Below, piece by piece: positions 5,738 through 55,292 of a stretch of DNA of 64,000 nt (its first letter is position 1; each line of letters opens with the position of its first letter). The notes beneath the pieces are model-generated. The model was not told the DNA's origin. It worked only from the letters and a program-made list of their open reading frames with translations, and ran no database searches. The DNA comes from an uncultured bacterium. GTDB lineage: Bacteria > Eisenbacteria > RBG-16-71-46. The translations under genes were made by a program, and so were the position numbers. Location of the stretch: positions 102,621 to 166,620 of the forward strand of contig CAZSQX010000002.1 of the NCBI GenBank assembly GCA_964609125.1. The letters run 5' to 3'.

Positions 5738-6925
5738 ATGGTCAAGCGACGCTCGTCCGCCAAAGGGAAACGCGCCCCGTTCCTGGTGGGCGCGATCGCC
5801 GCTGGCGCCCTGCTGCTGTTCCTCGCGGGCGAGCTGTTCGCGTGGTTCGTGTCGGACTCGGGCCGCCTGGCGCTGTGGCGCCACGTCCACCTCGGCAGCC
5901 GCGCACACGCCGTGCGCATCGTCGGGCGCCGCATCGAGCAGGGCCTCGAGCGCGCCGGCGTGCCCCGCACCGCCATCGCCTCCGAGGCGCGCGGCGGCTC
6001 GGGGCCGTCGCTCGCCTGGGAGGTGACGCTCCCGCGCGGGGCCTCGCCGCTCCTCGCCAATCACCTGGTCACGCGAGCGGTGGAAGCCGGAGGCGCCGAG
6101 GTGCTGTCGGGGCGCGAGCGCACCGACCGCGAGGGCCGGCTGGTGGTGACGCTGCTCGTGGGCGTGCCCGGGCGGCCCACGCACGAGGTGAGGCTCGCGC
6201 GCCCCGCGCCCCCGAGCGAGGACTCCGCGCCCGAACCGGCGAAGCTCGCGGTGCTGCTCGTGGCCTCCGCCGAGGACGACTCGCTGCTCGCGGCCGTGAG
6301 CGGGCGGCCCGAGGTGTTCTCCGTGGGCGTGGCCGCGACCGGCGCCGGCCGGAGCGAGCCGCTGCGCGCGGCGCACGAGCGCCGGCGCGAGGTCGTGCTG
6401 TTCATGCCCATGGAACCCGAGAACTACCCGCGCGTGAACCCGGGGCCCGCCACGCTGCTCGTGAGCATGCCGCCGGGGCGCATCGGTCAGGCGCTCCGCC
6501 GCGAGATCGACGTGGCCCGTCCGGTGGTGGCGGTGGCGAACCTGATGGGCTCGTTCGCGACCCAGGACGAGGCCTTTATGACCGCGGTCTACGAGGAGCT
6601 GCGCCGCTCGCAGCTCCCGTTCCTGCACGTGAACGCGGTGCCGCGCGCGGTGTGCCGGCCGCTGGCGGCGCGGGTCGGCGCCGCGTACGACGAGCCGGAC
6701 GAGACCATCGACGGCGAGGCCCGGCGCGGCGACGCGCGGGCGTTCGAGCGCGCGTGGACCGCGGCGGTCGCGCGGGCGCGCGATCGCGGCCAGGCGCTGG
6801 TGATCGTGCGCGTCACCCCGGCGAGCGCGGGCTGGCTCGCGCGCGCGCTCGACCCGAAACGGCTGGGCGAGGTGCGGCTCGTGCCCGTCTCGGCGGTGAT
6901 CCGCCGACCCACAGCCGCGCACTGA
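5738..6925 (+). CDS. divergent polysaccharide deacetylase (YibQ-like) family protein
   Basis: N-terminal TM helix after MVKRRSSAKGKR. Overall similarity to the divergent polysaccharide deacetylase family (recognised by overall family resemblance; no single motif cited). Confidence 0.7.
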   Translation: MVKRRSSAKGKRAPFLVGAIAAGALLLFLAGELFAWFVSDSGRLALWRHVHLGSRAHAVRIVGRRIEQGLERAGVPRTAIASEARGGSGPSLAWEVTLPRGASPLLANHLVTRAVEAGGAEVLSGRERTDREGRLVVTLLVGVPGRPTHEVRLARPAPPSEDSAPEPAKLAVLLVASAEDDSLLAAVSGRPEVFSVGVAATGAGRSEPLRAAHERRREVVLFMPMEPENYPRVNPGPATLLVSMPPGRIGQALRREIDVARPVVAVANLMGSFATQDEAFMTAVYEELRRSQLPFLHVNAVPRAVCRPLAARVGAAYDEPDETIDGEARRGDARAFERAWTAAVARARDRGQALVIVRVTPASAGWLARALDPKRLGEVRLVPVSAVIRRPTAAH

Positions 6926-14037: not shown

Positions 14038-14442
14038 ATGTTGAAGCGCATCATGACGATGCTCGAAGGGCTGAATGCGATGTCGCTCGCGCTCGGCGTC
14101 ATCATCGGCGGCGCGATCGGCAAGGTGGTGGGCTCGCTCACGAGCGACGTGCTCATGCCGCTCATCTCGCTCGTCATCCCGGGTGGTTCGTGGCGGACCG
14201 CCGAGATCGTGCTCCGGCGGAACGACGCGGGCGAGGTCGTGAACGCCATCAAGGCCGGCTCGTTCTTCGGCACGGTCGTGGACTTCCTCATCATCGCGTT
14301 CGTGATCCAGTGGCTCACGAAGATGCTGGTGAGACCCGCCCCGGCCCCGGCCGCCGCGCCCGCGACCAAGACCTGCCCCGAGTGCCGCGAGTCGGTGCTC
14401 GCGGACGCGCGCAAGTGCCGTCACTGCGGGAGCGCTCTGTAG
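14038..14442 (+). CDS. mscL: large-conductance mechanosensitive channel MscL with C-terminal Cys4 zinc-ribbon
   Basis: AGGAGGTG RBS 7 nt upstream. TM1 LALGVIIGGAIGKVV and TM2 VDFLIIAFVIQ match MscL. C-terminus is CPEC(x11)CRHC. Confidence 0.85.
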   Translation: MLKRIMTMLEGLNAMSLALGVIIGGAIGKVVGSLTSDVLMPLISLVIPGGSWRTAEIVLRRNDAGEVVNAIKAGSFFGTVVDFLIIAFVIQWLTKMLVRPAPAPAAAPATKTCPECRESVLADARKCRHCGSAL

Positions 14443-14716
14443 GTCGGAGCGCGCGCACGACGGCGCGCACGGGCCGCGGTCGGTCCGCTCCGGGGCCCCG
14501 GCCGATGTCCGGGGCCCGGAGCTTGCACGCGCCGCCCCGCGCCTCGTAGGCTCCCGCCCCTCGCGCCCGGAACACGTTGTGCCGACACGGCCTCGTGCGT
14601 GTCGTCGCGGCGGGCCGGCGCCTCCGACGTCCCGCGTTTCGGCAGGGCGGCGCCGCACTGTGCGGCGGCCGCGAGCCCAGTACCGGGCTTCCGACATAGT
14701 GCCTAAGGAGAACGAG

Positions 14717-16237
14717 ATGCGCCACCGCCTCCGGTTCGCCCCGCTCGCCCTGGTCCCGCTGCTCGCGGCCGGCGTGGCCGTGGCCGAGCCCCTCGGATCG
14801 CACTGGGAGCTGACGCCGTTCGGCGGGTTCACGATGTTCGACAGCAAGCTGCGCTTCCCCGGCAGCAACCTGCCGCTCACCGACGACCTGCACGTGGGCG
14901 GGCGGGTGGCGTGGCAGTCGAGGTCGTGGTTCGGCCTCGAGGCCGCGGGCGGGTTCTCGCCCACCACCGAGGACACGCCCGGCGGGCGCGACTTCGACTG
15001 GCTGCACGTGAGCGGCAACCTCGTGCTCTCGCCCGCGCGCGGGCGCTGGGGCGGCCCGTACCTGTTCGCGGGCGGCGGCACGGCGCAGGGCAAGCCGTCC
15101 AACGCCTCGGGCAGCACCGAGACCACGCTCGAGTTCGGCGGCGGCGTGAAGCTGTGGATGACGGACGCCGTGGGCCTCCGCTTCGAGGCGCGCGACGTGT
15201 CGTTCAAGTCGTTCTCGGGCAGCTCCTCCTCGCGGCTCCACACCGTGGTGCTGGGCGCCGGACTCACGTTCGCGCTGGGCGCCACACCGCGCGACACCGA
15301 CGGCGACGGTGTGCCCGACAAGAAGGACAAGTGCCCCGGCACGCCCGCGGGCGCCAAGGTGGACGCGAACGGCTGCCCGATCGACACCGACGGCGACGGC
15401 GTCTACGACGGCCTCGACCAGTGCGAGGGCACGCCGAAGGGCGCCACGGTGGACGCGAAGGGCTGCCCGAGCGACGCCGACGCCGACGGCGTGTTCGACG
15501 GCCTCGACCAGTGCGCCGACACCCCGAAGGGCGCCACGGTGGACGCGCGCGGCTGCCCGAGCGACTCGGACGGCGACGGCGTGCTCGACGGAATCGACCA
15601 GTGCCCCGGCACGCCCAAGGGCGCGGCCGTGGACGAGAGGGGCTGCCCGAAGGACTCGGACGGAGACGGCGTGTTCGACGGGCTGGACGAGTGCCCCGAC
15701 ACAATGGCCGGACTCAAGGTGGACGCCAAGGGCTGCCCGATCGAGGTGACCGAGCGCGAGACGGAGCTGCTGGACACCGGCATGATCCGGCTCCAGAACG
15801 TGAACTTCGAGACCAACAAGTCGGACATCCTTCCGGAGAGCTACCCCACGCTGGACGCGGTGGGCACGCTGCTCACGCGCTGGCCGCAGTTGAAGCTCGA
15901 GATCGGCGGCCACACCGACTCGCGCGGCTCCGCGGCGCGCAACCAGACGCTGTCCGAGGCGCGGGCCGAGGCGGTGCGCACGTACCTGACGGGCAAGTTC
16001 GCGCAGCTCGCACCCGGGCAGTTCACGGTGAAGGGCTACGGCGAGGCGAAGCCCGTGGTGCGCAACACCAGCGAGTTGAACTGGGCGAAGAACCGCCGCG
16101 TCGAGTTCGTGGTGATCAACAAGGACGTGCTGCGGAAGGAGATCGAGCGCCGCCGCCTGCTCCAGCAAGACGAGGCGGCGCCGCGCGACACGACGACCGC
16201 CCCCGCGCCGGCGCCGGCGGACACGACGAGGCGGTAG
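14717..16237 (+). CDS. OmpA-family outer membrane protein with N-terminal beta-barrel and thrombospondin type-3 repeats
   Basis: AAGGAG RBS; signal peptide; five DxDxDGxxDxxDxCPxTPxGAxVDxxGCP repeats; C-terminal OmpA domain (NxxLSxxRAxxV, NRRVEF). Confidence 0.85.
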   Translation: MRHRLRFAPLALVPLLAAGVAVAEPLGSHWELTPFGGFTMFDSKLRFPGSNLPLTDDLHVGGRVAWQSRSWFGLEAAGGFSPTTEDTPGGRDFDWLHVSGNLVLSPARGRWGGPYLFAGGGTAQGKPSNASGSTETTLEFGGGVKLWMTDAVGLRFEARDVSFKSFSGSSSSRLHTVVLGAGLTFALGATPRDTDGDGVPDKKDKCPGTPAGAKVDANGCPIDTDGDGVYDGLDQCEGTPKGATVDAKGCPSDADADGVFDGLDQCADTPKGATVDARGCPSDSDGDGVLDGIDQCPGTPKGAAVDERGCPKDSDGDGVFDGLDECPDTMAGLKVDAKGCPIEVTERETELLDTGMIRLQNVNFETNKSDILPESYPTLDAVGTLLTRWPQLKLEIGGHTDSRGSAARNQTLSEARAEAVRTYLTGKFAQLAPGQFTVKGYGEAKPVVRNTSELNWAKNRRVEFVVINKDVLRKEIERRRLLQQDEAAPRDTTTAPAPAPADTTRR

Positions 16238-20462: not shown

Positions 20463-20837
20463 GGGTCGGTTCCGGGGTTGCCGCACGGGCCCGGCACGAA
20501 CCGGGCGCCGGCGGAGCGTGAGCGTCGCGCATCCTAGGGGAGGCGCGGCGGCCGGAGCGACCGGCACTCCGGCTCGACGCATTCGCATGCACTTACGTCG
20601 GTCCCGGATGGTCCGGCGGGCTTCTGCGCAGAAGCGAGAGTGCCGGGTGGCCGATAGGTGGCCCATGGGCACCCGGCCGGCGGGCGCCGGCTCGCGATGA
20701 ACGGACGAGACGGCCCGACGGCCGGGTGGGAGCGGCTTGTCGCCTCCCCCCGGCCCTCGTACCCTACCGCGCGTGCGGTCCGGATCGGCGGCCCGAACGT
20801 CGCGACCGGAGTGCGTGATCCACATGGAGGTGGTCCT

Positions 20838-22304
20838 ATGCGCCTGGTCAGAACTTTCGCCGCGCCCGTCCTCGCGGCGGCGTGGCTCGCGTCCGCCGTC
20901 CCGGCGGCCGCGGTCGAGTCCAAGACGTGGACGGTCTCGCTGCTCGGCGGCTACGGCGTGTTCGACGAGCGCCTGCGCTACCCGGCCGACTCGCTCGCCG
21001 ACGCCCCGCTCGGGGGCGTGCGGATCGGCTACAGGATCGCCCGCAACTTCACGATCGAGGCGAGCGGCAGCTACGGGAAGACGCACGAGCAGCGGCGCAA
21101 CGGCTCCAACGGCGACGACGTCACGGTGATCACGGGCGGCGGCGCGCTCCTCGCCAACCTTTCGCCCGAGTCCAAGTGGGGCGACCTCTACCTGGGCGCG
21201 GGCTACGGCTACAACCGCTACAAGGCCGATTCGGCCAGCGACGACGCGCACTTCGGCACGTTCGACGCGATCGCGGGCTGGACGATCCCGCTGGGCGACG
21301 TGGCCCGGCTCCGGCTCGAGGCGCGCAACCTCCTCAACGTGCCCAAGGAGGACTGGGCCAAGGCGAGCCTCTCCGACCAGCAGTACTGGGGCGGGCTCAC
21401 GTTCGGCTTCGGCGGCGCGCCGAAGGACACCGACGGCGACGGCGTGCCGGACCGGAAGGACAAGTGCCCCGACACGCCGAACGGCGCCACGGTGGACGCG
21501 ACGGGCTGCCCGACGGATTCCGACGGCGACGGCGTGTGGGACGGCCTCGACCAGTGCATCGGCACGCCCAAGGGCGCGACCGTGGACGCGAAGGGCTGCC
21601 CGACGGACGCGGACGGCGACGGCGTCTACGACGGGCTGGACGCGTGCGGCGACACGCCGAAGGGCGCGACCGTGGACGCGCGCGGCTGCCCGGCCGACTC
21701 CGACGGCGACGGCGTGTTCGACGGCCTCGACCAGTGCGCCGGCACGCCGAGGGGCGCGACGGTGGACGCGAAGGGGTGCCCGACCGACTCCGACGGCGAC
21801 GGCGTGTTCGACGGCCTCGACCGCTGCCCCGGCACCGCCGCCGGCCTCAAGGTGGACTCGGAGGGCTGCCCGATCGAGGTCACCGAGAAGGAGACCGAGC
21901 TGCTCGACACGGGCATGATCCGGCTCCAGAACGTGAACTTCGAGACCGGCCGCTCGACGCTGCTGCCCGAGAGCTACCCGGCGCTCGACGAGGTCGGGAC
22001 CATTCTGCTCAAGTGGCCGCAGCTCAACATCGAGATCGGCGGTCACACCGACTCGCGCGGCAGCCTGCCGTTCAACCAGCGCCTGTCCGAGGATCGCGCC
22101 CAGTCGGTGAAGGACTACCTGACGCAGAAGTTCACCGGCCTCGCGGCGGACCAGCTCTCGATCAAGGGCTACGGCGAGAGCCGGCCGCTGGTGCGGAACA
22201 CGACCCAGCTCAACATGGCGAAGAACCGCCGCGTCGAGTTCAAGGTCACGAACCGCGACGTGCTGAAGAAGGAGATCGAACGGCGGAAGCTGCTTCAGAA
22301 GTAG
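20838..22304 (+). CDS. OmpA-family outer membrane protein with TSP3 repeats (paralog of 14717..16237)
   Basis: GGAGG RBS; signal peptide; five TSP3 repeats; OmpA C-terminal domain. The C-terminal ~150 aa are near-identical in motif order to the first paralog. Confidence 0.85.
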   Translation: MRLVRTFAAPVLAAAWLASAVPAAAVESKTWTVSLLGGYGVFDERLRYPADSLADAPLGGVRIGYRIARNFTIEASGSYGKTHEQRRNGSNGDDVTVITGGGALLANLSPESKWGDLYLGAGYGYNRYKADSASDDAHFGTFDAIAGWTIPLGDVARLRLEARNLLNVPKEDWAKASLSDQQYWGGLTFGFGGAPKDTDGDGVPDRKDKCPDTPNGATVDATGCPTDSDGDGVWDGLDQCIGTPKGATVDAKGCPTDADGDGVYDGLDACGDTPKGATVDARGCPADSDGDGVFDGLDQCAGTPRGATVDAKGCPTDSDGDGVFDGLDRCPGTAAGLKVDSEGCPIEVTEKETELLDTGMIRLQNVNFETGRSTLLPESYPALDEVGTILLKWPQLNIEIGGHTDSRGSLPFNQRLSEDRAQSVKDYLTQKFTGLAADQLSIKGYGESRPLVRNTTQLNMAKNRRVEFKVTNRDVLKKEIERRKLLQK

Positions 22305-27140: not shown

Positions 27141-27250
27141 GCCCGGGCCGGGATCGATTCACCCGCGGGGACCCCGCTTCGCGGCCCCACTCGCGAATCG
27201 ACGCCGCCCCGACCCGGCTTCCGAGGTGCCGAATCGATGAAAGCCATCTA
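27141..27250. repeat. ~100-bp palindromic repeat element, copy A (inverted relative to copy B)
   Basis: The reverse complement of ~27141-27242 matches 30377-30477 with about 5 mismatches in ~101 bp. Contains nested inverted subrepeats (tcgattc/gaatcga, ccgggccggg/cccggcccgg). Intergenic. Confidence 0.75.
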
Positions 27251-27261
27251 GAGTCCCGCGC

Positions 27262-28734: not shown

Positions 28735-29907
28735 ATGGATCCCACCGGCATGCGACCCGACCTCCGCCGCCGCGGTCCCGCCTGGGCGCTCGTGACGCTG
28801 TCGCTGGGGCTCGCGCTCGCCGGCGCGCGGCCGGTGCACTCGCTGCCCGCCTACGCCGCGCGCACCGGGCTCGACTGCCGGTCGTGCCACTTCGACCCCA
28901 ACGGCGGCGGCCCGCGCAACGCGTTCGGGTTCGTGTTCGAGAAGCAGCGCCACGACCTGGCTCCCGATCCCGACCCGCGCCGGGCGGAGTTGCCCTCCAC
29001 GAACCGGTTCGGCGACGTGCTCTACGTGGGCACGAACACGCGCATGCTCTACGTCGGGATGGGGACCTGGGACCTGGTGCAGGCCTCGTCGTTCTTCCAG
29101 ATGCAGGGCGCGCTCGGCCTGACGCTCCGGCCGCACCCGAACCTGGCCATCGTCATGGTGCGCGACTTCGGCGAGTTCTCCGGCGACATCACGCGCGACC
29201 TCTACGGCCTGATCCAGGACGGCGGCGGCAACTAATACGTGAAGGCCGGGCGCATCCGCGGCGTGTTCGGCCTGCGCCAGGACGACCACACCGCGGGCAC
29301 GCGCGGCGGGTTCCTCGACACCGCGGCGGGCGGCACCGGCGGGCTCCTGCCGTACGACCCGCGCGGCGTGGCGACCGGGATCGAGGCGGGTGTGGCCCGC
29401 GGCGGCTGGACGCTTTCGGCCTCGCTCACGAACGGCGGGCCCGCGTTCGCGAACCCGGTCCAGACCGTGGCCGCGAAGCTCGCCGCTCCGGCGCCGTTCG
29501 GACGGGTGGGGTTCTCCGTCTACGACGACTTCGCGACCTCCACCCGGCAGCGGCACACGCGCTGGAGCGGCTTCGGGTTCGCGCGGATGCCGGGGGTACC
29601 CGACCTCACGCTCCAGGGCGAGATCGGCCTCGGGACCGACGACCTCGGGAACGGGGTGAAGCACAACCTGCGCGCGACCTGCGCCCAGGCCGACTACCGC
29701 TTCAGCCGCGCGTTCACGCTGCGCGGGCGCTACGACTTCGCCGACGTCTTCCGCAGCGAGCCGGGGAACGCCTCCGAACGTTTCGCGGCCGAAGGCGAGT
29801 GGACGCTCGTGCCGTTCGCCGACCTGCGGCTCGGCTACCGCGAGATCGTCCCCGAGAAGTCGGGGAACGAGCACATGTGGCTCGCCATGGTCCACCTCTA
29901 CTACTGA
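28735..29907 (+). pseudogene. Cyc2-like fused monoheme cytochrome c-outer membrane porin, interrupted by one in-frame TAA (29233..29235)
   Basis: ORFs 28735..29235 and 29239..29907 share a frame, separated only by TAA. Part 1 has a signal peptide and CRSCH (CxxCH) about 10 residues after the predicted cleavage site. Part 2 has no signal peptide but ends with beta-barrel-type ...VHLYY. The pattern of short amphipathic strands runs straight across the stop. Confidence 0.55.
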
Positions 29908-29908
29908 C

Positions 29909-30370
29909 ATGGCGCGCCGGAGCCTCGACCTCGCTCGGCTCGTCGCGGCCGGCCTCGCGCTGGTCTCGGCGGTCGGCTGCACCGAGAAGGTGCCGATGCC
30001 CACGGATCCCACCGGCGGACCCGGACCGGGTCCGGGCGGCCCTCCCCTGACCCCCGACTCGATCCAGGCGATCTTCACCGCCCGCTGCATCGGCTGCCAC
30101 TCCGGCGGCTCGCCGGCGGCCGGCATGGACCTGAGCGCGGGCCACTCCTACGAGAACACGGTCGACGTGCCGTCGGCCGCGTGCGCGGGCCTCGACCGCA
30201 TCGAACCGAACGATCCCGCGAACAGCTGCCTGGTGCGGCGCATCGAGGGCTCCGTGTCGCCGCGCATGCCGCTGGGCGGCACGGGGCCGCTCCCCGCGGC
30301 GGACATCGCGAAGATCCGCAGTTGGATCTCGCAGGGCGCGCCCGGCGTCGTGTCGGGCCCGGTGCCCTAG
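29909..30370 (+). CDS. lipoprotein monoheme c-type cytochrome (PSCyt1-like domain)
   Basis: Lipobox LVSAVGC. Then IFTARCIGCHSGGSPAAGMDLS ... CLVRRIEGSVSPRMP ... IRSWISQGAP, matching the Planctomycete-type cytochrome c (PSCyt1) pattern. ATG overlaps the upstream stop (TGACATG). Confidence 0.65.
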   Translation: MARRSLDLARLVAAGLALVSAVGCTEKVPMPTDPTGGPGPGPGGPPLTPDSIQAIFTARCIGCHSGGSPAAGMDLSAGHSYENTVDVPSAACAGLDRIEPNDPANSCLVRRIEGSVSPRMPLGGTGPLPAADIAKIRSWISQGAPGVVSGPVP

Positions 30371-30376
30371 GAGTCC

Positions 30377-30509
30377 TTCATCGATTCGGCGCCACGCAAG
30401 CCGGGCCGGGGCGGCGTCGATTCGCGGGTGGGGCCGCGAAGCGGGGTCCCCGCGGGTGAATCGATCCCGGCCCGGGCCGGCGGTGATGCGGAATCAGCGA
30501 AAGCCATCT
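30377..30509. repeat. ~100-130-bp palindromic repeat element, copy B
   Basis: See copy A. Copy B carries extra imperfect terminal inverted ends (ttcatcgattcgg ... cggaatcagcgaa). Lies 7 bp after the cytochrome lipoprotein stop. Confidence 0.75.
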
Positions 30510-39543: not shown

Positions 39544-40664
39544 ACCCCGAGCGGCTCGGCGCCATGGTCCGCAAGGAGTTCGTGCAGATGCGGCGCGACC
39601 CGGCCACGCTCCGCCTCATGCTGGCCGTGCCGGTGATGCAGTTGCTCATCTTCGGCTACGCCATCCGCACCGACGTCCGGCACCTGCCCACGGTGGTGTT
39701 CGACCAGAGCCGCACCCGGCAGAGCCGCGAGTTCGTCGAACGCCTGACCGCCACCGACAACTTCGTGGTGAAGGCGAGCGTCCTCTCGTACGCCGCCGCC
39801 GTGAGCGAGGTGGACGCCGGCCGCGCCCGCGCCGCGGTGATCATTCCGCCCGACTACGCCCGGAGGCTCAAGCGCGGCCGCACCGCGGCCGTCCAGGTCC
39901 TGGTGGACGCGAGCGACCCGACCGCGTCCCAGAACGCGATCGCCGCCGCCCAGATGGTGGGCCAGCGGCTGAACGTCGCGATCGTGGGCGCGCGCAGCGG
40001 CGACGACCCGTCCGCGAAGCCGCCCGTGGACGTGCGCGTGCGGCCGCTCTACAACCCGGCGCTGCGCAGCGCGGTGTTCATCGTGCCGGGCATCATCGGC
40101 ATGATCCTGAGCAACATCCTGATCATCATCACCGCGCTGTCGCTGGTGCGCGAGCGCGAGACGGGTACGCTGGAGCAGCTCATCGTCACCCCGCTCGCGA
40201 AGTGGGAGATCATGGTCGGCAAGATCGCGCCGTACGTGCTGGTGGGCTACGTGCAGATGACCACGGTGCTGCTCGTGGGCCACTACGTATTCGACGTCCC
40301 GCTGCGCGGACCGCTGCTCGCGCTCTACGGTGCCTCGTTCCTGTTCATCGTCGCGAACCTCGGGCTGGGACTGTTCATCTCGACGCTGGGGCGGAATCAG
40401 GCGCAGGTGACCCAGGTGGCGTTCCTGTTCCTGCTCCCGAACGTGCTGCTGTCGGGGTTCATGTTTCCGCGCGAGGCGATGCCGGCGGTGGCGCGGGGGT
40501 TCGGCCTGCTCCTGCCGCTCACCTACTACCTCGAGGTGATCCGCGGCATCGTGCTGCGCGGGAACGGCCTGATGCAGGTATGGCCGCAGACGCTCGCGCT
40601 GGCGGGCTTCGCGCTGGCGTTCTTCCTGTTCGCCACGCGCCGGTTCTCGAAGACGCTGGAATGA
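39540..40664 (+). CDS. ABC-2 type transporter permease
   Basis: GTG overlapping the ATPase stop (GTGA); six TM helices; ABC-2 family motif region. Confidence 0.8.
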   Translation: MNPERLGAMVRKEFVQMRRDPATLRLMLAVPVMQLLIFGYAIRTDVRHLPTVVFDQSRTRQSREFVERLTATDNFVVKASVLSYAAAVSEVDAGRARAAVIIPPDYARRLKRGRTAAVQVLVDASDPTASQNAIAAAQMVGQRLNVAIVGARSGDDPSAKPPVDVRVRPLYNPALRSAVFIVPGIIGMILSNILIIITALSLVRERETGTLEQLIVTPLAKWEIMVGKIAPYVLVGYVQMTTVLLVGHYVFDVPLRGPLLALYGASFLFIVANLGLGLFISTLGRNQAQVTQVAFLFLLPNVLLSGFMFPREAMPAVARGFGLLLPLTYYLEVIRGIVLRGNGLMQVWPQTLALAGFALAFFLFATRRFSKTLE

Positions 40665-40683
40665 CGGGCCGGCGCGCGGGCGC

Positions 40684-41949
40684 ATGCAGGAGCGGGGCGG
40701 GGTCGCGATGGAGCTCGTGAACAAGGAGACCGCGAAGCCGCAGGCGTCGGCGGCGGCCCGCGACGTCCCCGACCCTTACCGGGTGCTGTTCCCGGTCGGG
40801 ATCGCGGCCGCGCTCGCGGGGCTCGCGCCGTGGCTCGCGTACGCCGTCGCGCTCCAGCCGTGGTGGCCCGCGTCGTGGCCGGTGGCGTGGCCGGGCCCCG
40901 CGCACGCGGGGCTCCTCGCGCAGGGCTTCGAGCTGGCGTTCGTGTGCGGGTTCCTGCTCACCGCCATGCCCGCGTTCACGCACGGCCCGCGCTGCACCCG
41001 CGCCGAGCTGGCGTTCGTGACCGCGGCCGTGGCCGCGTTCGTGGTCCTGCGCGCGCTGGACCTCGCCGTGGCCGCGTGGGCCTGGCTCGCGGCCCTGGCG
41101 CTGCTCGGGTTCACCGTCGCGCGCCGGGTCCGGCCCGGCGCGGCCGCGCCGCCCGAGGAGTTCCTGCTCGTGGGCACCGGGCTCGCACTCGGGCTCGCCG
41201 GCGGCGTGGTGCAGGCGCTGGCCGCCGCGGGCGTGCTCCCGCCGCCCGCCGAGCGCGCCGGCGTGCGCTGCGTCTCGCTCGGCATGCTGCCCGCGCTCGT
41301 GCTGGGCCTCGGCGGCCTGCTCGTGCCCACGTTCATGCGCATGGAGAACCCGCTCGACATCGTGGGCTGGGCGCGGGCGGGCGACCGCCCGCGACGCCGC
41401 GCGTACGCGGTCCTGATCGCGGCGCTGCTCGTGCTCGGGCTGCTCGGCGAGCTGTCGGGGCAGGTCCGCGCCGGCGGCTGGCTGCGCGCGCTCGCCGCGC
41501 TGGCCGCGACGCTGCTCGCCTGGAAGGTGTGGCGGCGCCCCGGGCGGAGCGACCCGCTGTCCTGGAGTCTCTGGACGGCCGGCTGGTGCGTCTCGCTCGG
41601 CTTCCTCGCCGCGGCGATCTGGCCCGTCCACCGCGTCGAGGCGTGGCACGTGGCGTTCGCCGGCGGCTACGCGCTGCTCACGCTCGGCATCGGCACGCGC
41701 GTCGTGGTCTCGCACGGCGGCCATGCCATGACCGAGGAGCGGGTGGTGCTGTCGGCCGGCGCGATCGCCGCGCTGCTGGCCGCCACGCTCGTGCGCGCGC
41801 TCGGCCCCGTCGCCGACCCGCCGCGGCTCGCGCTCCACCACGCGGTCGCCGCCGCGCTGGCGATGCTCGCGTTCGGGATGTGGCTGCTCGCCGCCTGGTC
41901 CCGCCTGCGGCGCACCCGGCGCCGGCTGCTGATGCCCGAGCGACGGTAG
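40684..41949 (+). CDS. NnrS-family membrane protein
   Basis: ~12 TM helices with conserved His residues, NnrS-like. Alternative ATG at 40708. Confidence 0.7.
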   Translation: MQERGGVAMELVNKETAKPQASAAARDVPDPYRVLFPVGIAAALAGLAPWLAYAVALQPWWPASWPVAWPGPAHAGLLAQGFELAFVCGFLLTAMPAFTHGPRCTRAELAFVTAAVAAFVVLRALDLAVAAWAWLAALALLGFTVARRVRPGAAAPPEEFLLVGTGLALGLAGGVVQALAAAGVLPPPAERAGVRCVSLGMLPALVLGLGGLLVPTFMRMENPLDIVGWARAGDRPRRRAYAVLIAALLVLGLLGELSGQVRAGGWLRALAALAATLLAWKVWRRPGRSDPLSWSLWTAGWCVSLGFLAAAIWPVHRVEAWHVAFAGGYALLTLGIGTRVVVSHGGHAMTEERVVLSAGAIAALLAATLVRALGPVADPPRLALHHAVAAALAMLAFGMWLLAAWSRLRRTRRRLLMPERR

Positions 41950-48860: not shown

Positions 48861-51758
48861 TCAGGATCCGAACGAGACCGACAGCGAGAACGCCGGTCCC
48901 GGCTTCGTGCGGTAGTACTCGACCGGACCCTGCCGGCCGGTCACCGTGACGTCGGTCAGGTTGGTGCCCGAGAGCTTCACGCGCACCGCCGGGCGCGGCC
49001 GGGCGCTGACCGAGGCGTCCACGGTGGTGACCGGGTCGTCCCAGAAGTCGGGGGCCACGTCGATGCCGAGCGCCGCGAGCTTGCGGCCGGTGTGCGACAC
49101 GAGCAGCGTGGTCTCGAAGCGCTGGTCCTGGGTCGCCCAGGTGAGCCCGGCGTTCAGCAGCCGGTCGGCCTGGCCCTGGAGCGGATGGACGCGACGCACG
49201 AGCGTGGTCGTGAACGCGGGCAGGCGCACTTCGGAGTCGATCCACGAGGCGTTGGCGTTCAGCGACAGGCGCCGGAGCGGCCGCCACACCCGGCCGAGCG
49301 AGGTCCGCAGCTCCAGCTCGAGCCCGCGGTTGCGGCCCGACTCCGAGTTCGTGGGCGTGAAGTAGGGCTCGTTGCCGCCGCGCGCCGACAGCTCCACGGG
49401 CTGCAACAGCCCCTTGTGGAACACGCCGACCGCGACCAGCTCGCCGAGCGAGGGAAACAGCTCCCAGCGCACGTCGTAGTTGTCGAGCCGCGCCCGGTCC
49501 AGGTCGGGGTTCCCGGTGAACACGAAACCCGGCAGGTCGCGCAGGCCGGGGACGTAGTCCTCGATCTGCTGTGGCGCCAGCTCGTTCACGTCCGGACGGG
49601 ACAGCGTGCGGCTCGCGCCGAGGCGCAGGCTCATGCTCTCGCGCGGATTCCACGTCAGGTTCGCGGACGGGAGCAGGTCGGTGTGGTCGAACTCCCCGAA
49701 CGCGGTGGTGTGCCCGTCGAACAGGTGGAAGCTGCGCACGCGCTGCATGCCGTACTCGAGCCGGGCGCCCAGCGTGGCCCGCAGGCGCGGGCCCAGCGGC
49801 AGGTCGAGGCTCATGAACGTGGCGGCCTGGTACTGCTGGGCGCCGTAGTTGTCGTCCGGGCGGGTCCATTCACGCACGTCCGCGCCCTGGAGCGTCCCGG
49901 TCCAGCGCTCCGGCGCGAACATCTCGCCGGGGGACAAGGTGTCGCCGCCGGGCGGCGGCACGAAGTAGAACCGCCGCATCCAGAACCGGCGCTCCTTCCA
50001 CTGGTCGCTGATCCCGGCCAGCCAGCGGCCCTGGCCCAGCCCGCCGGCGCGGAACGGCGTGCTCCACGACAGCTCGGCGCCGCGCCCGCGCTCGTCCATG
50101 TCGCTGAACTCGCGCGTGGCGCCACGGGTCTGTCCGCGCAGCGACCAGATCTCGCGCACCACGTCGTTGCCGTCCGGGTCCGTGAGCACGATGTCGCTGC
50201 GCTGGTAGTTCGATTCGCGCATGTCGGGCACCACGCGATCGGCGCGCGAGCGGCTCAGCTTCCAGTCCACGCGGCTGCCGTTCAGCGAACGGAACTCGTG
50301 CCGTCCCTCCAGGCTCCCGGTCAGGATGCTGCGCTCGACGTAGCGCAGGCGGTCGGAGCGGATGCGGTCCTGGATGTCCTCGCTGAAGCCATCGAACGAG
50401 CGCACCTCGTCCTCGGCGTCGCGGTTGTAGAAGCCGCGCAGGTGCAGCGAGTGCGCGGGCGCGAGGCGCACGCCCACCGCCGCCAGGCCGCCGAGTTGCA
50501 CTCGATCGCTGCCGCGCTCGACGCCGTAGTCGAACCGGGGCTGGTCGGGGACGCCGTTCGCGAAGTCCTGGCCCACGTAGTAGCGCGAGCGCTCGGTCTG
50601 GATCTCCTGGGACCGGCTGTAGTTCCCGGACGCGAGCACGCCCACCGAGCGGCCGAACAGCCGGTACTCGTCCCCGAACGAGGCCGCGTAGCTGCCGTTC
50701 GGAGCGACCGAGCCCCGCTCCGGCGTCCACTCCTGGTCGAAGCCGCGGCCGATCTCGGCGCGCTCGGCCGACGTGAGGCCGGTGCCGAGCACGCTGTTGT
50801 ACGTGGTCACGGGCTGCGTCGACGCGAGCCGCTGCAGCGCGCCCGGCAGCGCGCGGGCCGACGCGCCGAGCCCCCACGAGTCGCGTCCCGAGCCGGCGTA
50901 GCGCAGGCCGCGCTCGAACGTGCTCCCGTCGTCCACGCCCTGGCCCGCCGAGAACGACCATTGCCGCCGGCCGGGAAAGTCCTTGGTCTTCACCTGCACG
51001 TCGCCGCCCCCGAACTCCGCCGGGCGATCGGCGGTGTAGGTCTTCTGCACCGTGATGTTCTCGAGCAGGTTCGCCGGGATGATGTCGAGCGGCACGACGC
51101 GCTTGTTGAGCTCGGGCGAGGCGAGCCGGACCCCGTCCACCTCGGTCGAGCTGTAGCGCTCGCCCAGACCCCGCACGTACACGAACTTCCCCTCGTTGAC
51201 CGAGAGCCCGGTGACGCGCTTGAGCACGTCGCCGGCGTCCTTGTCGGGCGAGCGCCGCATCTGCTCGGCGCTCACCGCGTCGGACACCGCGGCGGCCTTG
51301 CGGCGGATCGCGAGCAGGGCGTTGTCGGTGTCCTGGGCGCGGCGCGCCTCGACGACGATCTCCTCCTGCTCGATCGCCTCGGGCGTGAGCGGCACGAGCA
51401 GCTCCTCGGACGGCGCGGCGCCCACGCGCACCCCCGCCAGCTCCTTGCGCGCGTAGGAGAGCGCCTGCACACGCAACGTGTAGATCCCGGGGGCGGCAAG
51501 CAGCTCGAACGTGCCGTCGGCGTTCGTCATGCCGCCGACCCGCCGGAGCGTGGTGTCCGCGGGCAGCAACAGCAGGTTGCAGTACGACATGGGCTCGCCG
51601 GTGTCCCTGGCGACGACCTTGCCGCGGACCCTGCCCGGCGGCTGAGCGTTCGCGACGGACACGAGCACCGCCACCGCGAACGTCGCCGCGACGCACAGCG
51701 TCGCGGTCCACTTCGTCGCCCGGGCGGCCGGGGAGCGGGAGTCGTGATTGCGGTTCAT
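48861..51758 (-). CDS. TonB-dependent receptor with N-terminal carboxypeptidase-regulatory-like domain
   Basis: Start at M44 of ORF 48861..51887. Contains CarbopepD_reg-like RVRGKVVARDTGEPMSYCNLLL, a plug domain, and a long beta-barrel. Confidence 0.85.
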   Translation of the reverse strand: MNRNHDSRSPAARATKWTATLCVAATFAVAVLVSVANAQPPGRVRGKVVARDTGEPMSYCNLLLLPADTTLRRVGGMTNADGTFELLAAPGIYTLRVQALSYARKELAGVRVGAAPSEELLVPLTPEAIEQEEIVVEARRAQDTDNALLAIRRKAAAVSDAVSAEQMRRSPDKDAGDVLKRVTGLSVNEGKFVYVRGLGERYSSTEVDGVRLASPELNKRVVPLDIIPANLLENITVQKTYTADRPAEFGGGDVQVKTKDFPGRRQWSFSAGQGVDDGSTFERGLRYAGSGRDSWGLGASARALPGALQRLASTQPVTTYNSVLGTGLTSAERAEIGRGFDQEWTPERGSVAPNGSYAASFGDEYRLFGRSVGVLASGNYSRSQEIQTERSRYYVGQDFANGVPDQPRFDYGVERGSDRVQLGGLAAVGVRLAPAHSLHLRGFYNRDAEDEVRSFDGFSEDIQDRIRSDRLRYVERSILTGSLEGRHEFRSLNGSRVDWKLSRSRADRVVPDMRESNYQRSDIVLTDPDGNDVVREIWSLRGQTRGATREFSDMDERGRGAELSWSTPFRAGGLGQGRWLAGISDQWKERRFWMRRFYFVPPPGGDTLSPGEMFAPERWTGTLQGADVREWTRPDDNYGAQQYQAATFMSLDLPLGPRLRATLGARLEYGMQRVRSFHLFDGHTTAFGEFDHTDLLPSANLTWNPRESMSLRLGASRTLSRPDVNELAPQQIEDYVPGLRDLPGFVFTGNPDLDRARLDNYDVRWELFPSLGELVAVGVFHKGLLQPVELSARGGNEPYFTPTNSESGRNRGLELELRTSLGRVWRPLRRLSLNANASWIDSEVRLPAFTTTLVRRVHPLQGQADRLLNAGLTWATQDQRFETTLLVSHTGRKLAALGIDVAPDFWDDPVTTVDASVSARPRPAVRVKLSGTNLTDVTVTGRQGPVEYYRTKPGPAFSLSVSFGS

Positions 51759-51883
51759 TCGACACCCCTTCGTTCGGGATGGTCCGGGGCCGACGCCGGG
51801 CCCGTGGTCCACGATGCTTCGGAAGACGCCCGGGGGGGGCGGGCCCGCGCCCGCCCCCCTCCGCAGCCCGTCCTGGCGCCCGC

Positions 51884-54800
51884 TCAACGCAGTCGCACGA
51901 ACCGGCCCGTCGCCTGACGGCCGGGCGTGCGGACCCGGTAGAAGTAGGTGCCCGCCGGGAGCTCGCCGGCCTCCCTCCAGGTGACGGTGTGGGCGCCGGC
52001 GTCCCGCTCACCGCGCGCGAGCGTGCGGACGAGGCGGCCGTCGGCGCCGAACACATCGACGTCCACGCGACCCGCGACCGGCAGCGTGAAGCGGATCTGG
52101 AGCTCGTTCCGCACCGGGTTCGGGAGCGCGAACGCCGTGAACGCGGCGTGTCCCGTCCCGCCGACGTCCGCGGTGGCCTGGCTGCACTGGACGCCGGGGC
52201 CGTAGGCGAACGAGCGGTCGGCGCAGTGGTTGCGGAACGTCTCGGCGCCGTTCAGCTCGAGCGCGTTGCTCTTCCAGTAGGCGATGATCGAGTTCAGGAT
52301 CACGGCGCTCGTCCCGCGGCGGAGGAACACGCCGTCCACGACGCCCGAGCCCGCCGTCTTATCGCCGAGGATGGTGAAGTTGGAGAGGGTGGGGAACGAC
52401 CGCCCCGAGCACAGCTCGGTGGCGTTGTTGAACTCGTTGTTGTCCGCCTCGATGCCGCGTTCCGTGCCCGCCGCCCCCGTGATCTGCCGGATCACCACGA
52501 ACTGCGCCTTGCCCCGGTAGCCCATCTGCCAGTCGAAGCCGTCGTCCTCGCCGTAGGTCAGCACCAGGTGGCTCACCTGCGCCGTGCCCCCGAACAGCTC
52601 GAACAGGTCGTCCGAGCTCCGGTGGCTCTGGATGTGGTGGATCTCCGTGCCCGAGCCCACCGCGTTCAGCGTCAGCCCGTTCGCCTCGTTGTTCGGCCCC
52701 ACCTGCACGCCCGCGAACTCCGAACGCAGATAGCGGATCACGCCGCTGTCGTCCGCGTCGTCGTTGCCGCCGTAGTGGCCCACCACCCCGCCCTCCGAGG
52801 CGGCGGAGTCGCCGGCGCACGAGTTCACCGCGTTCGTCCGCGCCCGGCCGTGCACGAAGATGCCGCCGATGCCGCCCGGCGTCTGCGAGCCCGGCGCCGC
52901 GTCCGACGTCAGCACGATCGGCGCGTACGACTCGCCCAGCGCGAAGATCTTCGCCCCGCGCTCGATGATGATGGTGCCGACGGTCGCGGTCTCCTCGAAG
53001 ATGTGCGTGCCGGCCTGGATCGTGAGCGAGGCCTGCTCCTTCACCCGCAGCTGCCCGCGCACCAGGTAGTTCGAGTCCGCCGAGAACGTGCGGTCGGAGT
53101 AGAAGTTGTGGTTGTCCACCACCACCACCGGCCGCACCGGGAACGTCCGGCCCCCGCCGTCCAGCCCGTAGTACGTCCACCCCGCCGTCCAGTCCGGCTC
53201 CGTCGCGCCGAGCGCGCCGGCGAAGTCCACCTGCCGGAAGAAGCCGTCGTTCGGCAGGTCGAGCACCGGGTGCAGGCCGTTCGCGCAGAACGCGGGCGAG
53301 CCCGCCGCCGGCCGCCAGTTCGGGCTCGCGGTGACGAGCGCGCCCGAGAGCAGCGGGTCCAGGTTGCTGTTGCGCGTGAACTGGACCGTGGCGATGCTCA
53401 CCGTCGTCGAGTCGAGACCCGGCACGCACGGGCTGCCCGCCGAGGCCGCGCCCGCGTAGTGGTCGCCGCCCGAGGCGCCGTTGTCCCACAGCAGGTTGCC
53501 GTCGAAGACGACGGGGTCCGGGTTCACGCCGGCCGCGCAGGCCGCCGCGGGCACGAGCCCCGCGACGCCCGCGCGGTCGGCGCAGTGGTTGGCGAACGTC
53601 TCGGCGCCGTTCAGCTCGAGCGCGTTGCTCTTCCAGTAGGCGATGATCGAGTTCAGGATCACGGCGCTCGTCCCGCGGCGGAGGAACACGCCGTCCACGA
53701 CGCCCGAGCCCGCCGTCTTATCGCCGAGGATGGTGAAGTTGGAGAGGGTGGGGAACGACCGCCCCGAGCACAGCTCGGTGGCGTTGTTGAACTCGTTGTT
53801 GTCCGCCTCGATGCCGCGTTCCGTGCCCGCCGCCCCCGTGATCTGCCGGATCACCACGAACTGCGCCTTGCCCCGGTAGCCCATCTGCCAGTCGAAGCCG
53901 TCGTCCTCGCCGTAGGTCAGCACCAGGTGGCTCACCTGCGCCGTGCCCCCGAACAGCTCGAACAGGTCGTCCGAGCTCCGGTGGCTCTGGATGTGGTGGA
54001 TCTCCGTGCCCGAGCCCACCGCGTTCAGCGTCAGCCCGTTCGCCTCGTTGTTCGGCCCCACCTGCACGCCCGCGAACTCCGAACGCAGATAGCGGATCAC
54101 GCCGCTGTCGTCCGCGTCGTCGTTGCCGCCGTAGTGGCCCACCACCCCGCCCTCCGAGGCGGCGGAGTCGCCGGCGCACGAGTTCACCGCGTTCGTCCGC
54201 GCCCGGCCGTGCACGAAGATGCCGCCGATGCCGCCCGGCGTCTGCGAGCCCGGCGCCGCGTCCGACGTCAGCACGATCGGCGCGTACGACTCGCCCAGCG
54301 CGAAGATCTTCGCCCCGCGCTCGATGATGATGGTGCCGACGGTCGCGGTCTCCTCGAAGATGTGCGTGCCGGCCTGGATCGTGAGCGAGGCCTGCTCCTT
54401 CACCCGCAGCTGCCCGCGCACCAGGTAGTTCGAGTCCGCCGAGAACGTGCGGTCGGAGTAGAAGTTGTGGTTGTCCACCACCACCACCGGCCGCACCGGG
54501 AACGTCCGGCCCCCGCCGTCCAGCCCGTAGTACGTCCACCCCGCCGTCCAGTCCGGCTCCGTCGCGCCGAGCGCGCCGGCGAAGTCCACCTGCCGGAAGA
54601 AGCCGTCGTTCGGCAGGTCGAGCACCGGGTGCAGGCCGTTCGCGCAGAACGCGGGCGAGCCCGCCGCCGGCCGCCAGTTCGGGCTCGCGGTGACGAGCGC
54701 GCCCGAGAGCAGCGGGTCCAGGTTGCTGTTGCGCGTGAACTGGACCGTGGCGATGCTCACCGTCGTCGAGTCGAGACCCGGCACGCACGGGCTGCCCGCC

Positions 54801-54967
54801 GAGGCCGCGCCCGCGTAGAGCCCGGCGCTCGCGCTGAAGACGATGTTGCCGTCGAAGACGACCGGGTTCACCTGGGACTTCGCCGGCGCCGCGAGCGCGG
54901 CCACGAGCGCGAGGGCACGGACCGCCGTGCGGACCGGACGGCGTCCGACCGTGGTGGTGATGCGCAT
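51884..54967 (-). CDS. large secreted protein with internally duplicated ~450-aa module and C-terminal FlgD-Ig/T9SS-type sorting domain
   Basis: AGGAGG RBS; signal peptide MRITTTVGRRPVRTAVRALALVAALAAPAKS; two near-identical modules. C-terminus NPVRNELQIRFTLPVAGRV...GTYFYRV. Confidence 0.7.
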   Translation of the reverse strand: MRITTTVGRRPVRTAVRALALVAALAAPAKSQVNPVVFDGNIVFSASAGLYAGAASAGSPCVPGLDSTTVSIATVQFTRNSNLDPLLSGALVTASPNWRPAAGSPAFCANGLHPVLDLPNDGFFRQVDFAGALGATEPDWTAGWTYYGLDGGGRTFPVRPVVVVDNHNFYSDRTFSADSNYLVRGQLRVKEQASLTIQAGTHIFEETATVGTIIIERGAKIFALGESYAPIVLTSDAAPGSQTPGGIGGIFVHGRARTNAVNSCAGDSAASEGGVVGHYGGNDDADDSGVIRYLRSEFAGVQVGPNNEANGLTLNAVGSGTEIHHIQSHRSSDDLFELFGGTAQVSHLVLTYGEDDGFDWQMGYRGKAQFVVIRQITGAAGTERGIEADNNEFNNATELCSGRSFPTLSNFTILGDKTAGSGVVDGVFLRRGTSAVILNSIIAYWKSNALELNGAETFANHCADRAGVAGLVPAAACAAGVNPDPVVFDGNLLWDNGASGGDHYAGAASAGSPCVPGLDSTTVSIATVQFTRNSNLDPLLSGALVTASPNWRPAAGSPAFCANGLHPVLDLPNDGFFRQVDFAGALGATEPDWTAGWTYYGLDGGGRTFPVRPVVVVDNHNFYSDRTFSADSNYLVRGQLRVKEQASLTIQAGTHIFEETATVGTIIIERGAKIFALGESYAPIVLTSDAAPGSQTPGGIGGIFVHGRARTNAVNSCAGDSAASEGGVVGHYGGNDDADDSGVIRYLRSEFAGVQVGPNNEANGLTLNAVGSGTEIHHIQSHRSSDDLFELFGGTAQVSHLVLTYGEDDGFDWQMGYRGKAQFVVIRQITGAAGTERGIEADNNEFNNATELCSGRSFPTLSNFTILGDKTAGSGVVDGVFLRRGTSAVILNSIIAYWKSNALELNGAETFRNHCADRSFAYGPGVQCSQATADVGGTGHAAFTAFALPNPVRNELQIRFTLPVAGRVDVDVFGADGRLVRTLARGERDAGAHTVTWREAGELPAGTYFYRVRTPGRQATGRFVRLR
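52218..54818. repeat. near-perfect tandem duplication, two ~1.24-kb units with 1359-bp period (approx. 52218..53458 and 53577..54818)
   Basis: Identical six-frame ORFs recur at +1359 (52284/53643 and 52860/54219). Direct reading shows identity from ~52214/53573 to ~53458/54818, with 2 mismatches near the lower junction. Confidence 0.8.
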
Positions 54968-55292
54968 GCTGCCTCCTGGGACTGGTACCGCAGCGGGATG
55001 TCGGTGGCGCGCGCCTTCCGTCGGTGAGCCGACCGCCGGATCCCTCGGGGTTCTCGCCGCAGGGCTCGGCGCGCGCCGGGGGATGTGGGAGGGGCGGGAC
55101 GGCGAAGCGAGGACGTTGATGTGGAGCGCGCGGCGAGCCCGCAGGTGTCATTCCCGAGGGTGTAGACCCGCTCGCCGCGGCCACCCGCTTCCCACGGGGG
55201 ACAGAGTGCGGTGCGGCGAAACGCCGGCCGGTGTCCGCCGTGTTTCGGTCACGTAAGAACCCGCGTCGCCGGAATGCGCGCGACGCGCGGGC

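Follow-up and report, generated by a model that had tools for sequence, protein, structure and literature searches.

The window analysed here is a stretch of 64,000 nucleotides (nt) from a contig of an uncultured bacterium of the Eisenbacteria (CAZSQX010000002.1, positions 102,621 to 166,620), and the genes of interest are two adjacent ones on its forward strand. The second, at 29909-30370 (+), ends in the stop codon TAG at 30368-30370 and encodes a predicted lipoprotein of 153 amino acids (aa), a monoheme cytochrome related to the PSCyt1 and FoxE heme domains. The first, at 28750-29907 (+), comprises 385 codons and encodes a monoheme cytochrome fused to a 16-strand porin, and it is interrupted in the window by a premature stop. 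The reading that we consider the best, and a reasonably probable one on the sequence data, is that the small protein would be a lipid-tethered redox partner of the porin-cytochrome and that the two would form a two-part electron conduit.

The G+C content of the window is 74%, a composition at which long chance open reading frames are common. The frame at 29909-30370 is more than that: it is a real, conserved gene under purifying selection, because it has 19 database homologues and conserved motif residues, its ratio of nonsynonymous to synonymous substitution (dN/dS) against three orthologues is 0.26-0.42, and its G+C content at third codon positions (GC3) is 0.94. Seventeen of the 19 homologues are 59-98% identical to the window protein and 139-155 aa long. 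Across the 20 aligned sequences C60, C63, H64, W139 and G143 are invariant, M120 is nearly so, and G23 and C24 are at least 90% conserved within the consensus LGCTEK. The earlier note on this DNA had described a 153-aa frame with an AVGC lipobox and a single CIGCH within a PSCyt1-type pattern; coordinates and motifs were all found as described. The pattern reads IFxxRCxxCH...DL...CLVRR...RMP...WIsQGAP and is conserved in the homologues.

The predicted signal peptide occupies residues 1-23 (MARRSLDLARLVAAGLALVSAVG, followed by Cys24) and, with the lipobox in which it ends, spans 29909-29980 (+). This lipobox, A21-V22-G23-C24, lies at 29969-29980 (+), with the codon of Cys24 at 29978-29980, and is followed by T-E-K. 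A positively charged n-region, a hydrophobic h-region and a match to [LVIA][ASTVI][GAS]C with an invariant Cys can be read from the sequence and predict a lipoprotein. A lipobox is also present in 16 of 16 distant relatives that are linked to a porin (for example VAGCSDGG or VAACGGGG, with S or G at position +2), and across the close clade and these relatives position +2 is S, G or T and in no member Asp. The RR of the n-region raised the possibility of export by the Tat pathway, which was rejected, as the RR is not conserved (RK and TR also occur among the orthologues) and c-type cytochromes mature after Sec export. Residues 25-49 (29981-30055, +; TEKVPMPTDPTGGPGPGPGGPPLTP) form a Pro/Gly-rich linker, probably a flexible tether, which varies in length among the homologues; in the AlphaFold2 (AF2) model the predicted local distance difference test (pLDDT) is below 50 for residues 20-49.

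The cytochrome domain covers residues ~50-146 (30056-30346, +) and aligns to PSCyt1 and to both heme repeats of FoxE. It holds the only heme-binding motif of the protein, C60-I-G-C63-H64 (30086-30100, +), and the candidate distal heme ligand Met120 in PRMPLG (codon at 30266-30268, +), which aligns with the Met of the RMP motif in both FoxE repeats; its C-terminal helix reads IRSWISQGAP. Cys92 (codon 30182-30184, +) and Cys107 (codon 30227-30229, +) show at least 90% conservation within the close clade, and the distant members P0018 and P0019 lack them; the two are a possible disulfide pair.

With regard to family, the Pfam model of PSCyt1 (PF07635), the domain named in the earlier note, matched residues 60-121 over profile positions 1-56 of 59 with 21.3 bits (E=4.3e-4), which is 0.7 bit short of the gathering cut-off of 22 bits. 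Both the CxxCH at the start of the domain and the downstream MP motif (P118-R-M120-P121) are present and conserved. Cytochrome_CBB3 scored 19.5 bits against a cut-off of 27; at E<=0.01 PSCyt1 was matched by 12 of the 20 family members and Cytochrome_CBB3 by 13, and an NCBIfam scan of the small protein gave insignificant matches only. When 1.84 billion cluster representatives were searched with a profile of the family, 30,653 of them matched at E<=1e-3, of which 8,564 reached E<=1e-10. The top matches mostly carry two to eight copies of the domain, and some are single-domain forms of ~150 aa. Ten top matches were scanned against Pfam; these exceeded the PSCyt1 cut-off well and combine the domain with CHRD or Ig-like domains. 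Retrieved relatives scored between 40 and 148.7 bits on PSCyt1, the latter for a protein with five copies; locus L025 reached 42 bits, and the most distant genome relative (L064, a metagenome-assembled genome of the Planctomycetota) 53 bits in a PSCyt1-PSCyt2-PSD1 architecture. Because relatives found with the family profile clearly exceed the cut-off, the assignment to PSCyt1 holds at superfamily level on profile similarity, but not by the score of the window protein itself. The suggestion that a standalone small form is exceptional had to be dropped, as the more than 30,000 cluster representatives come in many architectures that include the single-domain forms.

Among all sequences in the PDB, FoxE (5MAB/5MVO) was the sole significant match to the family profile (43.6 bits, E=2.4e-10), with 16.7 bits at most for those that followed. 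Its two heme repeats (5MAB residues 90-176 and 198-289) both align to the single domain, and the alignment spans CxxCH, P-x-DP-x-[NA]S, RMP-x-G and WI-x-[QA]GA[PK]; with the window sequence alone the match to FoxE has E=0.0015. A fragment with FoxE repeat 2 in turn scores 23 bits on PSCyt1. FoxE has a two-repeat chain and foxY and foxZ as neighbours, whereas the window protein has one CxxCH and lies between the porin-cytochrome and ThiL genes. Because of the single repeat and the different neighbours, the sequence comparison identifies it as a single-repeat, putatively lipid-anchored relative of the FoxE heme domain, a remote homologue and not a FoxE orthologue.

Within the one orthologous family the heme motif alternates between CxxCH and CxxxxCH, the latter occurring in P0005, P0007, P0008 and P0014 (RCAIPACH is one instance). 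In a wider set of 58 relatives, CxxxxCH (typically CA[FLV]SGCH) is the sole form in 30 and CxxCH in 17, two have both and nine neither; the PSCyt1 model was silent at E<=0.001 on the five CxxxxCH-bearing proteins scanned. Partners beside the porin-cytochrome in Vicinamibacterales (L043:5824-6414, L044:5911-6354, L055:5926-6354 and L056:5266-6354) have a degenerate SCVEHHGD, in which the second Cys is replaced by His, and keep the lipobox and the rest of the domain. By its sequence, this CVEHH form may hold heme by a single thioether bond, or none.

The upstream gene carries its heme motif, CRSCH, at 28876-28890 (residues 43-47). Its intact orthologues are 385 aa long and start at the ATG equivalent to that at 28750. 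An AF2 model of P0020, a 99% identical porin, built with 95 homologues (pLDDT 85.7; predicted template modelling score, pTM, 0.82), has a helical N-terminal segment with the CRSCH followed by 16 strands, and Foldseek matched it to general porins of 16 strands (VhChiP, Omp32 and OmpF) at E ~1e-12, at best 5e-13. One porin homologue with 47% identity comes from Candidatus Eiseniibacteriota.

Cyc2 is defined by a signal peptide, a single CXXCH, a length of at least 365 aa, 16 strands, the motif PXFAR[Q/K][T/Y] upstream of the CXXCH and PXL four residues downstream of it (Keffer et al., PMC8406198). The protein shares with this definition the hydrophobic N-terminus or signal peptide, the single N-terminal CXXCH (invariant in the family), the 16 strands and a sufficient length (385 aa). 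The motifs differ: the family signature is PLYAAR[TQ]GLxCxxCHFDPNGGGPRN, for which the window reads SLPAYAARTGLDCRSCHFDPNGGGPRN. A strict match to PXFAR[Q/K][T/Y] was found in none of 78 family members, and no PXL was seen by eye after the CH of the window porin or of the family consensus, where the stretch reads FDPNG. No Pfam or NCBIfam model matches the window halves or the intact homologues. Judged on the published motif and on architecture, the upstream protein appears Cyc2-like in its architecture, and membership of the Cyc2 family is unproven. The description of the neighbour as a Cyc2-like fused cytochrome-porin thus survives with regard to architecture and tight linkage, but the Cyc2 motif is missing and the gene is interrupted by a TAA codon.

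The two genes meet at 29905-29911 (+) in the sequence TAC TGA C ATG, in which the stop codon of the porin gene (29905-29907) and the ATG at 29909 are separated by one base; contrary to what had been supposed, they do not overlap. The identical TGA-C-ATG junction occurs in L001, L004, L005, L008, L009, L010, L066, L068 and L069, with the variants TGA-C-GTG in L070, TGATG in L074 and a spacer of 13 nt with GGAAGG in L072; this Shine-Dalgarno-like sequence is present only with the 13-nt spacer. Because of the one-base gap and the absence of an upstream ribosome-binding site, the junction suggests translational coupling by re-initiation. Scans found no sigma-70 promoter or terminator between 28000 and 31000, and no Rfam match in the whole window.

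The pair is adjacent in every close relative with enough flank. These relatives share the entire neighbourhood (M20 peptidase, TPR-aspartyl protease, DUF2231, ICMT/PEMT, MGMT-like, the pair, ThiL, MFS and two M16 peptidases), so adjacency among them proves little. In L004 a gene on the opposite strand lies between the pair and the genes upstream of it, and the pair is intact. In a survey from the porin side, 80 metagenome loci were scanned, and the small cytochrome lies directly downstream in all eight that have a porin of at least 55% identity and enough flank. A second survey started from the cytochrome and covered 58 genome loci in many phyla, in which a porin relative within 6 kb was counted; 20 have one, which is immediately adjacent in 19. 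The order is reversed, with the porin directly downstream, in 11 loci of Gammaproteobacteria (Woeseiaceae, Pseudomonadales and others) and one of Gemmatimonadota, the distance from the stop of the lipoprotein gene to the porin heme codon being 90-174 nt; L013 and the loci of Vicinamibacterales have the porin upstream. Taken together, the two surveys and L004 show linkage beyond shared synteny, with adjacency conserved across phyla. It had been proposed earlier that the pairing would be contradicted if homologues never adjoined cytochrome-porin genes; they repeatedly adjoin such genes in distant lineages.

Large lipoproteins of the Gammaproteobacteria carry the heme domain as their C-terminal module, together with three to six CHRD domains, one Ig-like (Big_5) domain and sometimes thrombospondin type 3 repeats. 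Woeseiaceae and relatives have two copies of the heme domain, one on either side of an Ig-like domain. Ten loci encode such fused domains (L011, L012, L013, L021, L026 and L041, with genes ending near 6300, and L025, L030, L035 and L037). A porin-cytochrome adjoins in all ten, directly downstream in nine and upstream in L013.

On the reading preferred here, the small protein would leave the cytoplasm through the Sec pathway and receive its lipid at Cys24; CIGCH would bind a single heme covalently, and the axial ligands would be His64 and, probably, Met120. A Pro/Gly tether of roughly 25 residues would hold the protein to a membrane. As the family has no Asp at position +2, the likeliest site is the inner leaflet of the outer membrane. 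The retention rule for Asp at +2 applies in Gammaproteobacteria, and outer-membrane anchoring is expected at least there. Produced together with the upstream porin by re-initiation at TGA-C-ATG, the cytochrome would serve as its dedicated redox partner; electrons would be taken from the N-terminal heme of the porin, or directly from Fe2+ entering the pore, as has been proposed for Cyc2 (PMC8406198) and FoxE (PMC10654088), and then be handed inward to soluble or inner-membrane carriers. The gene, its lipobox and heme motifs, the homology to PSCyt1 and FoxE, the neighbour with its heme motif and 16 strands and the adjacency across phyla are established; lipidation, localisation, contact between the partners, the direction of electrons and the substrate are inferred.

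Several results weigh against this reading. The AF2 model of the small protein, from the 20-sequence alignment, is poor (pLDDT 60, pTM 0.53), and a Foldseek search with it against the PDB returned nothing at E<=0.001; the weak matches were all class I cytochrome c domains and were treated as uninformative. A PSCyt1-like domain was found in none of 71 metagenome loci with a porin of at most 46% identity, 44 of which have at least 500 nt of downstream flank, so the porin family needs no adjacent partner. Likewise, 38 of the 58 loci of small-cytochrome relatives have no porin within the available flanks, nor does the P0018 locus. No respiratory, heme-maturation or Fox genes were found near the pair. 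The degenerate CVEHH implies that the pairing may not require heme in every lineage, and since the CHRD, PKD, Ig-like, TSP3 and MopE-like modules to which the domain is fused in relatives are often extracellular, a periplasmic location is not assured. Finally, the porin gene is truncated in the window itself.

This truncation is caused by a TAA at 29233-29235 (+), codon 162 of 385, where the window reads N*YVKAGRIRG and the orthologues YYVKAGRIRG. The codon is TAC (Tyr) in five comparators (L146, L066, L001, L005 and L004). Of these L146, a contig of a different sample, matches the window with 99.2% identity across 1987 nt (15 differences) and encodes an intact 385-aa porin-cytochrome and the 153-aa small protein. 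When changes were polarised with four outgroups, the window lineage was found to have replacements at conserved sites of the porin (W78R, Q127R and L308R, W78 being at least 90% conserved in 95 sequences) and one clearly window-derived synonymous change. The premature stop makes it probable that the gene pair is nonfunctional in this genome, and the pattern of changes, although the numbers are small, suggests relaxed selection or recent pseudogenisation more than a lone sequencing error. Whether the module is decaying here, with the porin-cytochrome a pseudogene and the small gene, which has no Shine-Dalgarno sequence of its own and would depend on translational coupling, poorly expressed or being lost, we regard as evenly balanced. 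Very few changes were counted, the TAA might stem from an error in sequencing or assembly, the reading frame beyond it is otherwise intact, and the small gene differs from that of the intact strain by a single replacement, S117P, at a variable site. The minimal electron-transfer module proposed earlier would thus probably not function in this genome.

As to what the pair would do where it is intact, the homology to FoxE raises the alternative that the small cytochrome is itself a periplasmic Fe(II) oxidase, the porin being mainly a pore for Fe2+ whose heme is auxiliary or acts in parallel and has no role as donor. FoxE, the diheme cytochrome of the foxEYZ system of Rhodobacter ferrooxidans SW2, is described as a protein that draws electrons from Fe(II) (PMC10654088), it is the only solved protein to match significantly and does so with both repeats, and it has been argued that Fe2+ has to enter the pore of Cyc2-type barrels (PMC8406198). 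The similarity is nevertheless remote, at E=0.0015 for the single sequence and with one repeat against two, FoxY and FoxZ genes are not nearby, and the invariant CxxCH of the porin argues for a functional heme. We consider this alternative unlikely.

Somewhat less probable still is a location on the cell surface, where the lipoprotein would be the extracellular redox face of the porin-cytochrome, as MtrC is for MtrAB, and would contact minerals, humics or metals. CHRD, PKD, Ig-like, TSP3 and MopE-like modules typically occur in proteins that are secreted or displayed on the surface, and it is with such modules that the porin-linked relatives in Gammaproteobacteria and Acidobacteriota build large lipoproteins ending in the same domain; the lack of Asp at +2 in every member also fits. 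The window protein, in contrast, has only its 25-residue tether and no extra domain, and no surface-export machinery is linked to the pair. The N-terminus of a barrel with an even number of strands faces the periplasm, and with 16 strands so would the heme segment of the porin.

To about the same degree we doubt an outward flow of electrons, whether to reduce Fe(III), Mn(IV) or humics outside the cell or to get rid of reducing power, or a role outside energy metabolism such as metal detoxification or redox sensing. Direction is unreadable from sequence, the flanking genes are housekeeping genes with no respiratory operon among them, and a FoxE-containing fraction was weakly Fe(III)-reducing (PMC11570789), but the characterised relatives on both sides, Cyc2 and FoxE, are oxidases. 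Monoheme cytochromes with His/Met ligation usually have a high potential, which suits electron uptake and also argues against outward flow.

That the adjacency is nothing but inherited synteny, with the small protein a general periplasmic cytochrome unrelated to the porin-cytochrome, is very improbable, for although close relatives share the whole neighbourhood and both genes have many relatives that lack the respective partner, the two families adjoin in unrelated neighbourhoods and in opposite order (Gammaproteobacteria, Gemmatimonadota and Vicinamibacterales), the one-base junction is conserved and the pair is intact in L004 despite its changed upstream neighbour.

The lipid-tethered partner of a porin-cytochrome, as preferred here, can be set beside several described systems. 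It shares with FoxE a homologous heme repeat and an exported protein, and FoxE repeat 2 is itself recognised as PSCyt1; it differs in its one repeat and predicted lipid anchor, and in that FoxE has FoxY, which is a pyrroloquinoline quinone (PQQ) protein, and FoxZ beside it where the window protein has the porin-cytochrome. The RMP methionines of FoxE are described as axial ligands, each of which ligates the heme of the other repeat (PMC10654088). A single-repeat protein must therefore ligate its own heme or pair up, and by analogy the lipoprotein may work only as a dimer or share heme ligation with its partner.

The cyc2 and cyc1 genes are adjacent in the rus operon of Acidithiobacillus (PMC10654088), and here too an outer-membrane monoheme-porin fusion is directly followed by the gene of a c-type cytochrome predicted to be periplasmic. 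Cyc1 is described as a diheme c4 cytochrome (PMC7029218, PMC10654088), whereas the window protein is a monoheme PSCyt1/FoxE-like lipoprotein, with one heme motif and Cytochrome_CBB3 below its cut-off. The label of a Cyc1-like partner can accordingly be kept as a functional analogy at most, FoxE being the only solved homologue of significance. The porin family differs from Cyc2 in its signature, as given above, and no oxidase or rusticyanin genes follow the window pair.

The Planctomycete PSCyt1-PSCyt2-PSD1 (DUF1549/DUF1553) proteins contain the same heme domain family, PF07635. In these the domain is N-terminal in ~1100 aa, whereas it stands alone in the window and is C-terminal or duplicated in the porin-linked relatives. 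MtoAB-MtoD, PioAB-PioC and MtrCAB likewise combine an outer-membrane barrel and a heme protein with a small redox carrier or lipoprotein cytochrome (PMC10654088, PMC10734462), but with barrels of 26 strands and decaheme cytochromes (PMC8406198), where the parts here are monoheme with 16 strands and have no sequence relationship to them. The logic of the module is thus already known from cyc2-cyc1, MtoAB-MtoD and PioAB-PioC, and the component parts differ. No literature was found that links PSCyt1 to Cyc2, among searched papers of which only five mention PSCyt1, or CHRD-domain proteins to porin-cytochromes.

Beyond the pair, an inverted-repeat arm of 121 nt at 30357-30477 overlaps the last 14 nt of the small gene and can form a long hairpin (minimum free energy -72.6 kcal/mol, z = -2.2). 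The other arm lies at 27141-27261, 3095 nt away. The arms are 89% complementary (95% over a core of 101 nt), are the only two copies in the window, and bracket a 3.1-kb block with the ICMT-like, MGMT-like, porin-cytochrome and small cytochrome genes. The repeat is also present in the 99% identical strain L146 and was not detected in relatives that share the synteny. A mobile cassette bounded by these repeats was considered and rejected, since the synteny is the same in relatives without them.

Elsewhere in the window are two paralogous genes that encode an outer-membrane beta-barrel with thrombospondin type 3 repeats and an OmpA domain (14333-16234, + and 20658-22301, +), a gene for a membrane protein of the NnrS family (40573-41946, +) and a TonB-dependent receptor with a CarboxypepD_reg domain (48864-52007, -) adjacent to a protein of 1087 aa with a C-terminal FlgD_ig-like domain as its sole match (51887-55147, -). 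The OmpA-type barrels, the TonB-dependent receptor and AsmA fit a diderm cell envelope.

The periplasmic electron acceptor for neutrophilic iron oxidisers is unsettled; Cyc1 is absent in some lineages and there are many candidate cytochromes (PMC7029218). A tightly coupled pair that recurs across phyla provides a concrete candidate for the periplasmic partner of monoheme porin-cytochromes, and it joins the Cyc2-like barrel with the FoxE-like heme repeat, two types of iron-oxidation protein that were so far dealt with apart from each other. FoxE has been described from BLAST-based surveys as restricted to a narrow range of microbes (PMC11570789), and its heme repeat is part of a very large PSCyt1-like superfamily, with the 30,653 cluster representatives reported above. 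More tentatively, and as a proposal that we ourselves rate as rather doubtful, the pair could be an unrecognised two-gene conduit of a monoheme 16-strand porin outside the Cyc2 family and a FoxE-like cytochrome tethered to the outer membrane, which would be conserved from uncultured soil bacteria of high GC to the marine Woeseiaceae and Pseudomonadales (there with CHRD, Ig-like and TSP3 domains) and would draw electrons from Fe(II) or from other donors outside the cell. Surveys of iron-cycling genes that use the strict Cyc2 motif would miss the pair, should it function in bacteria of soil and sediment.

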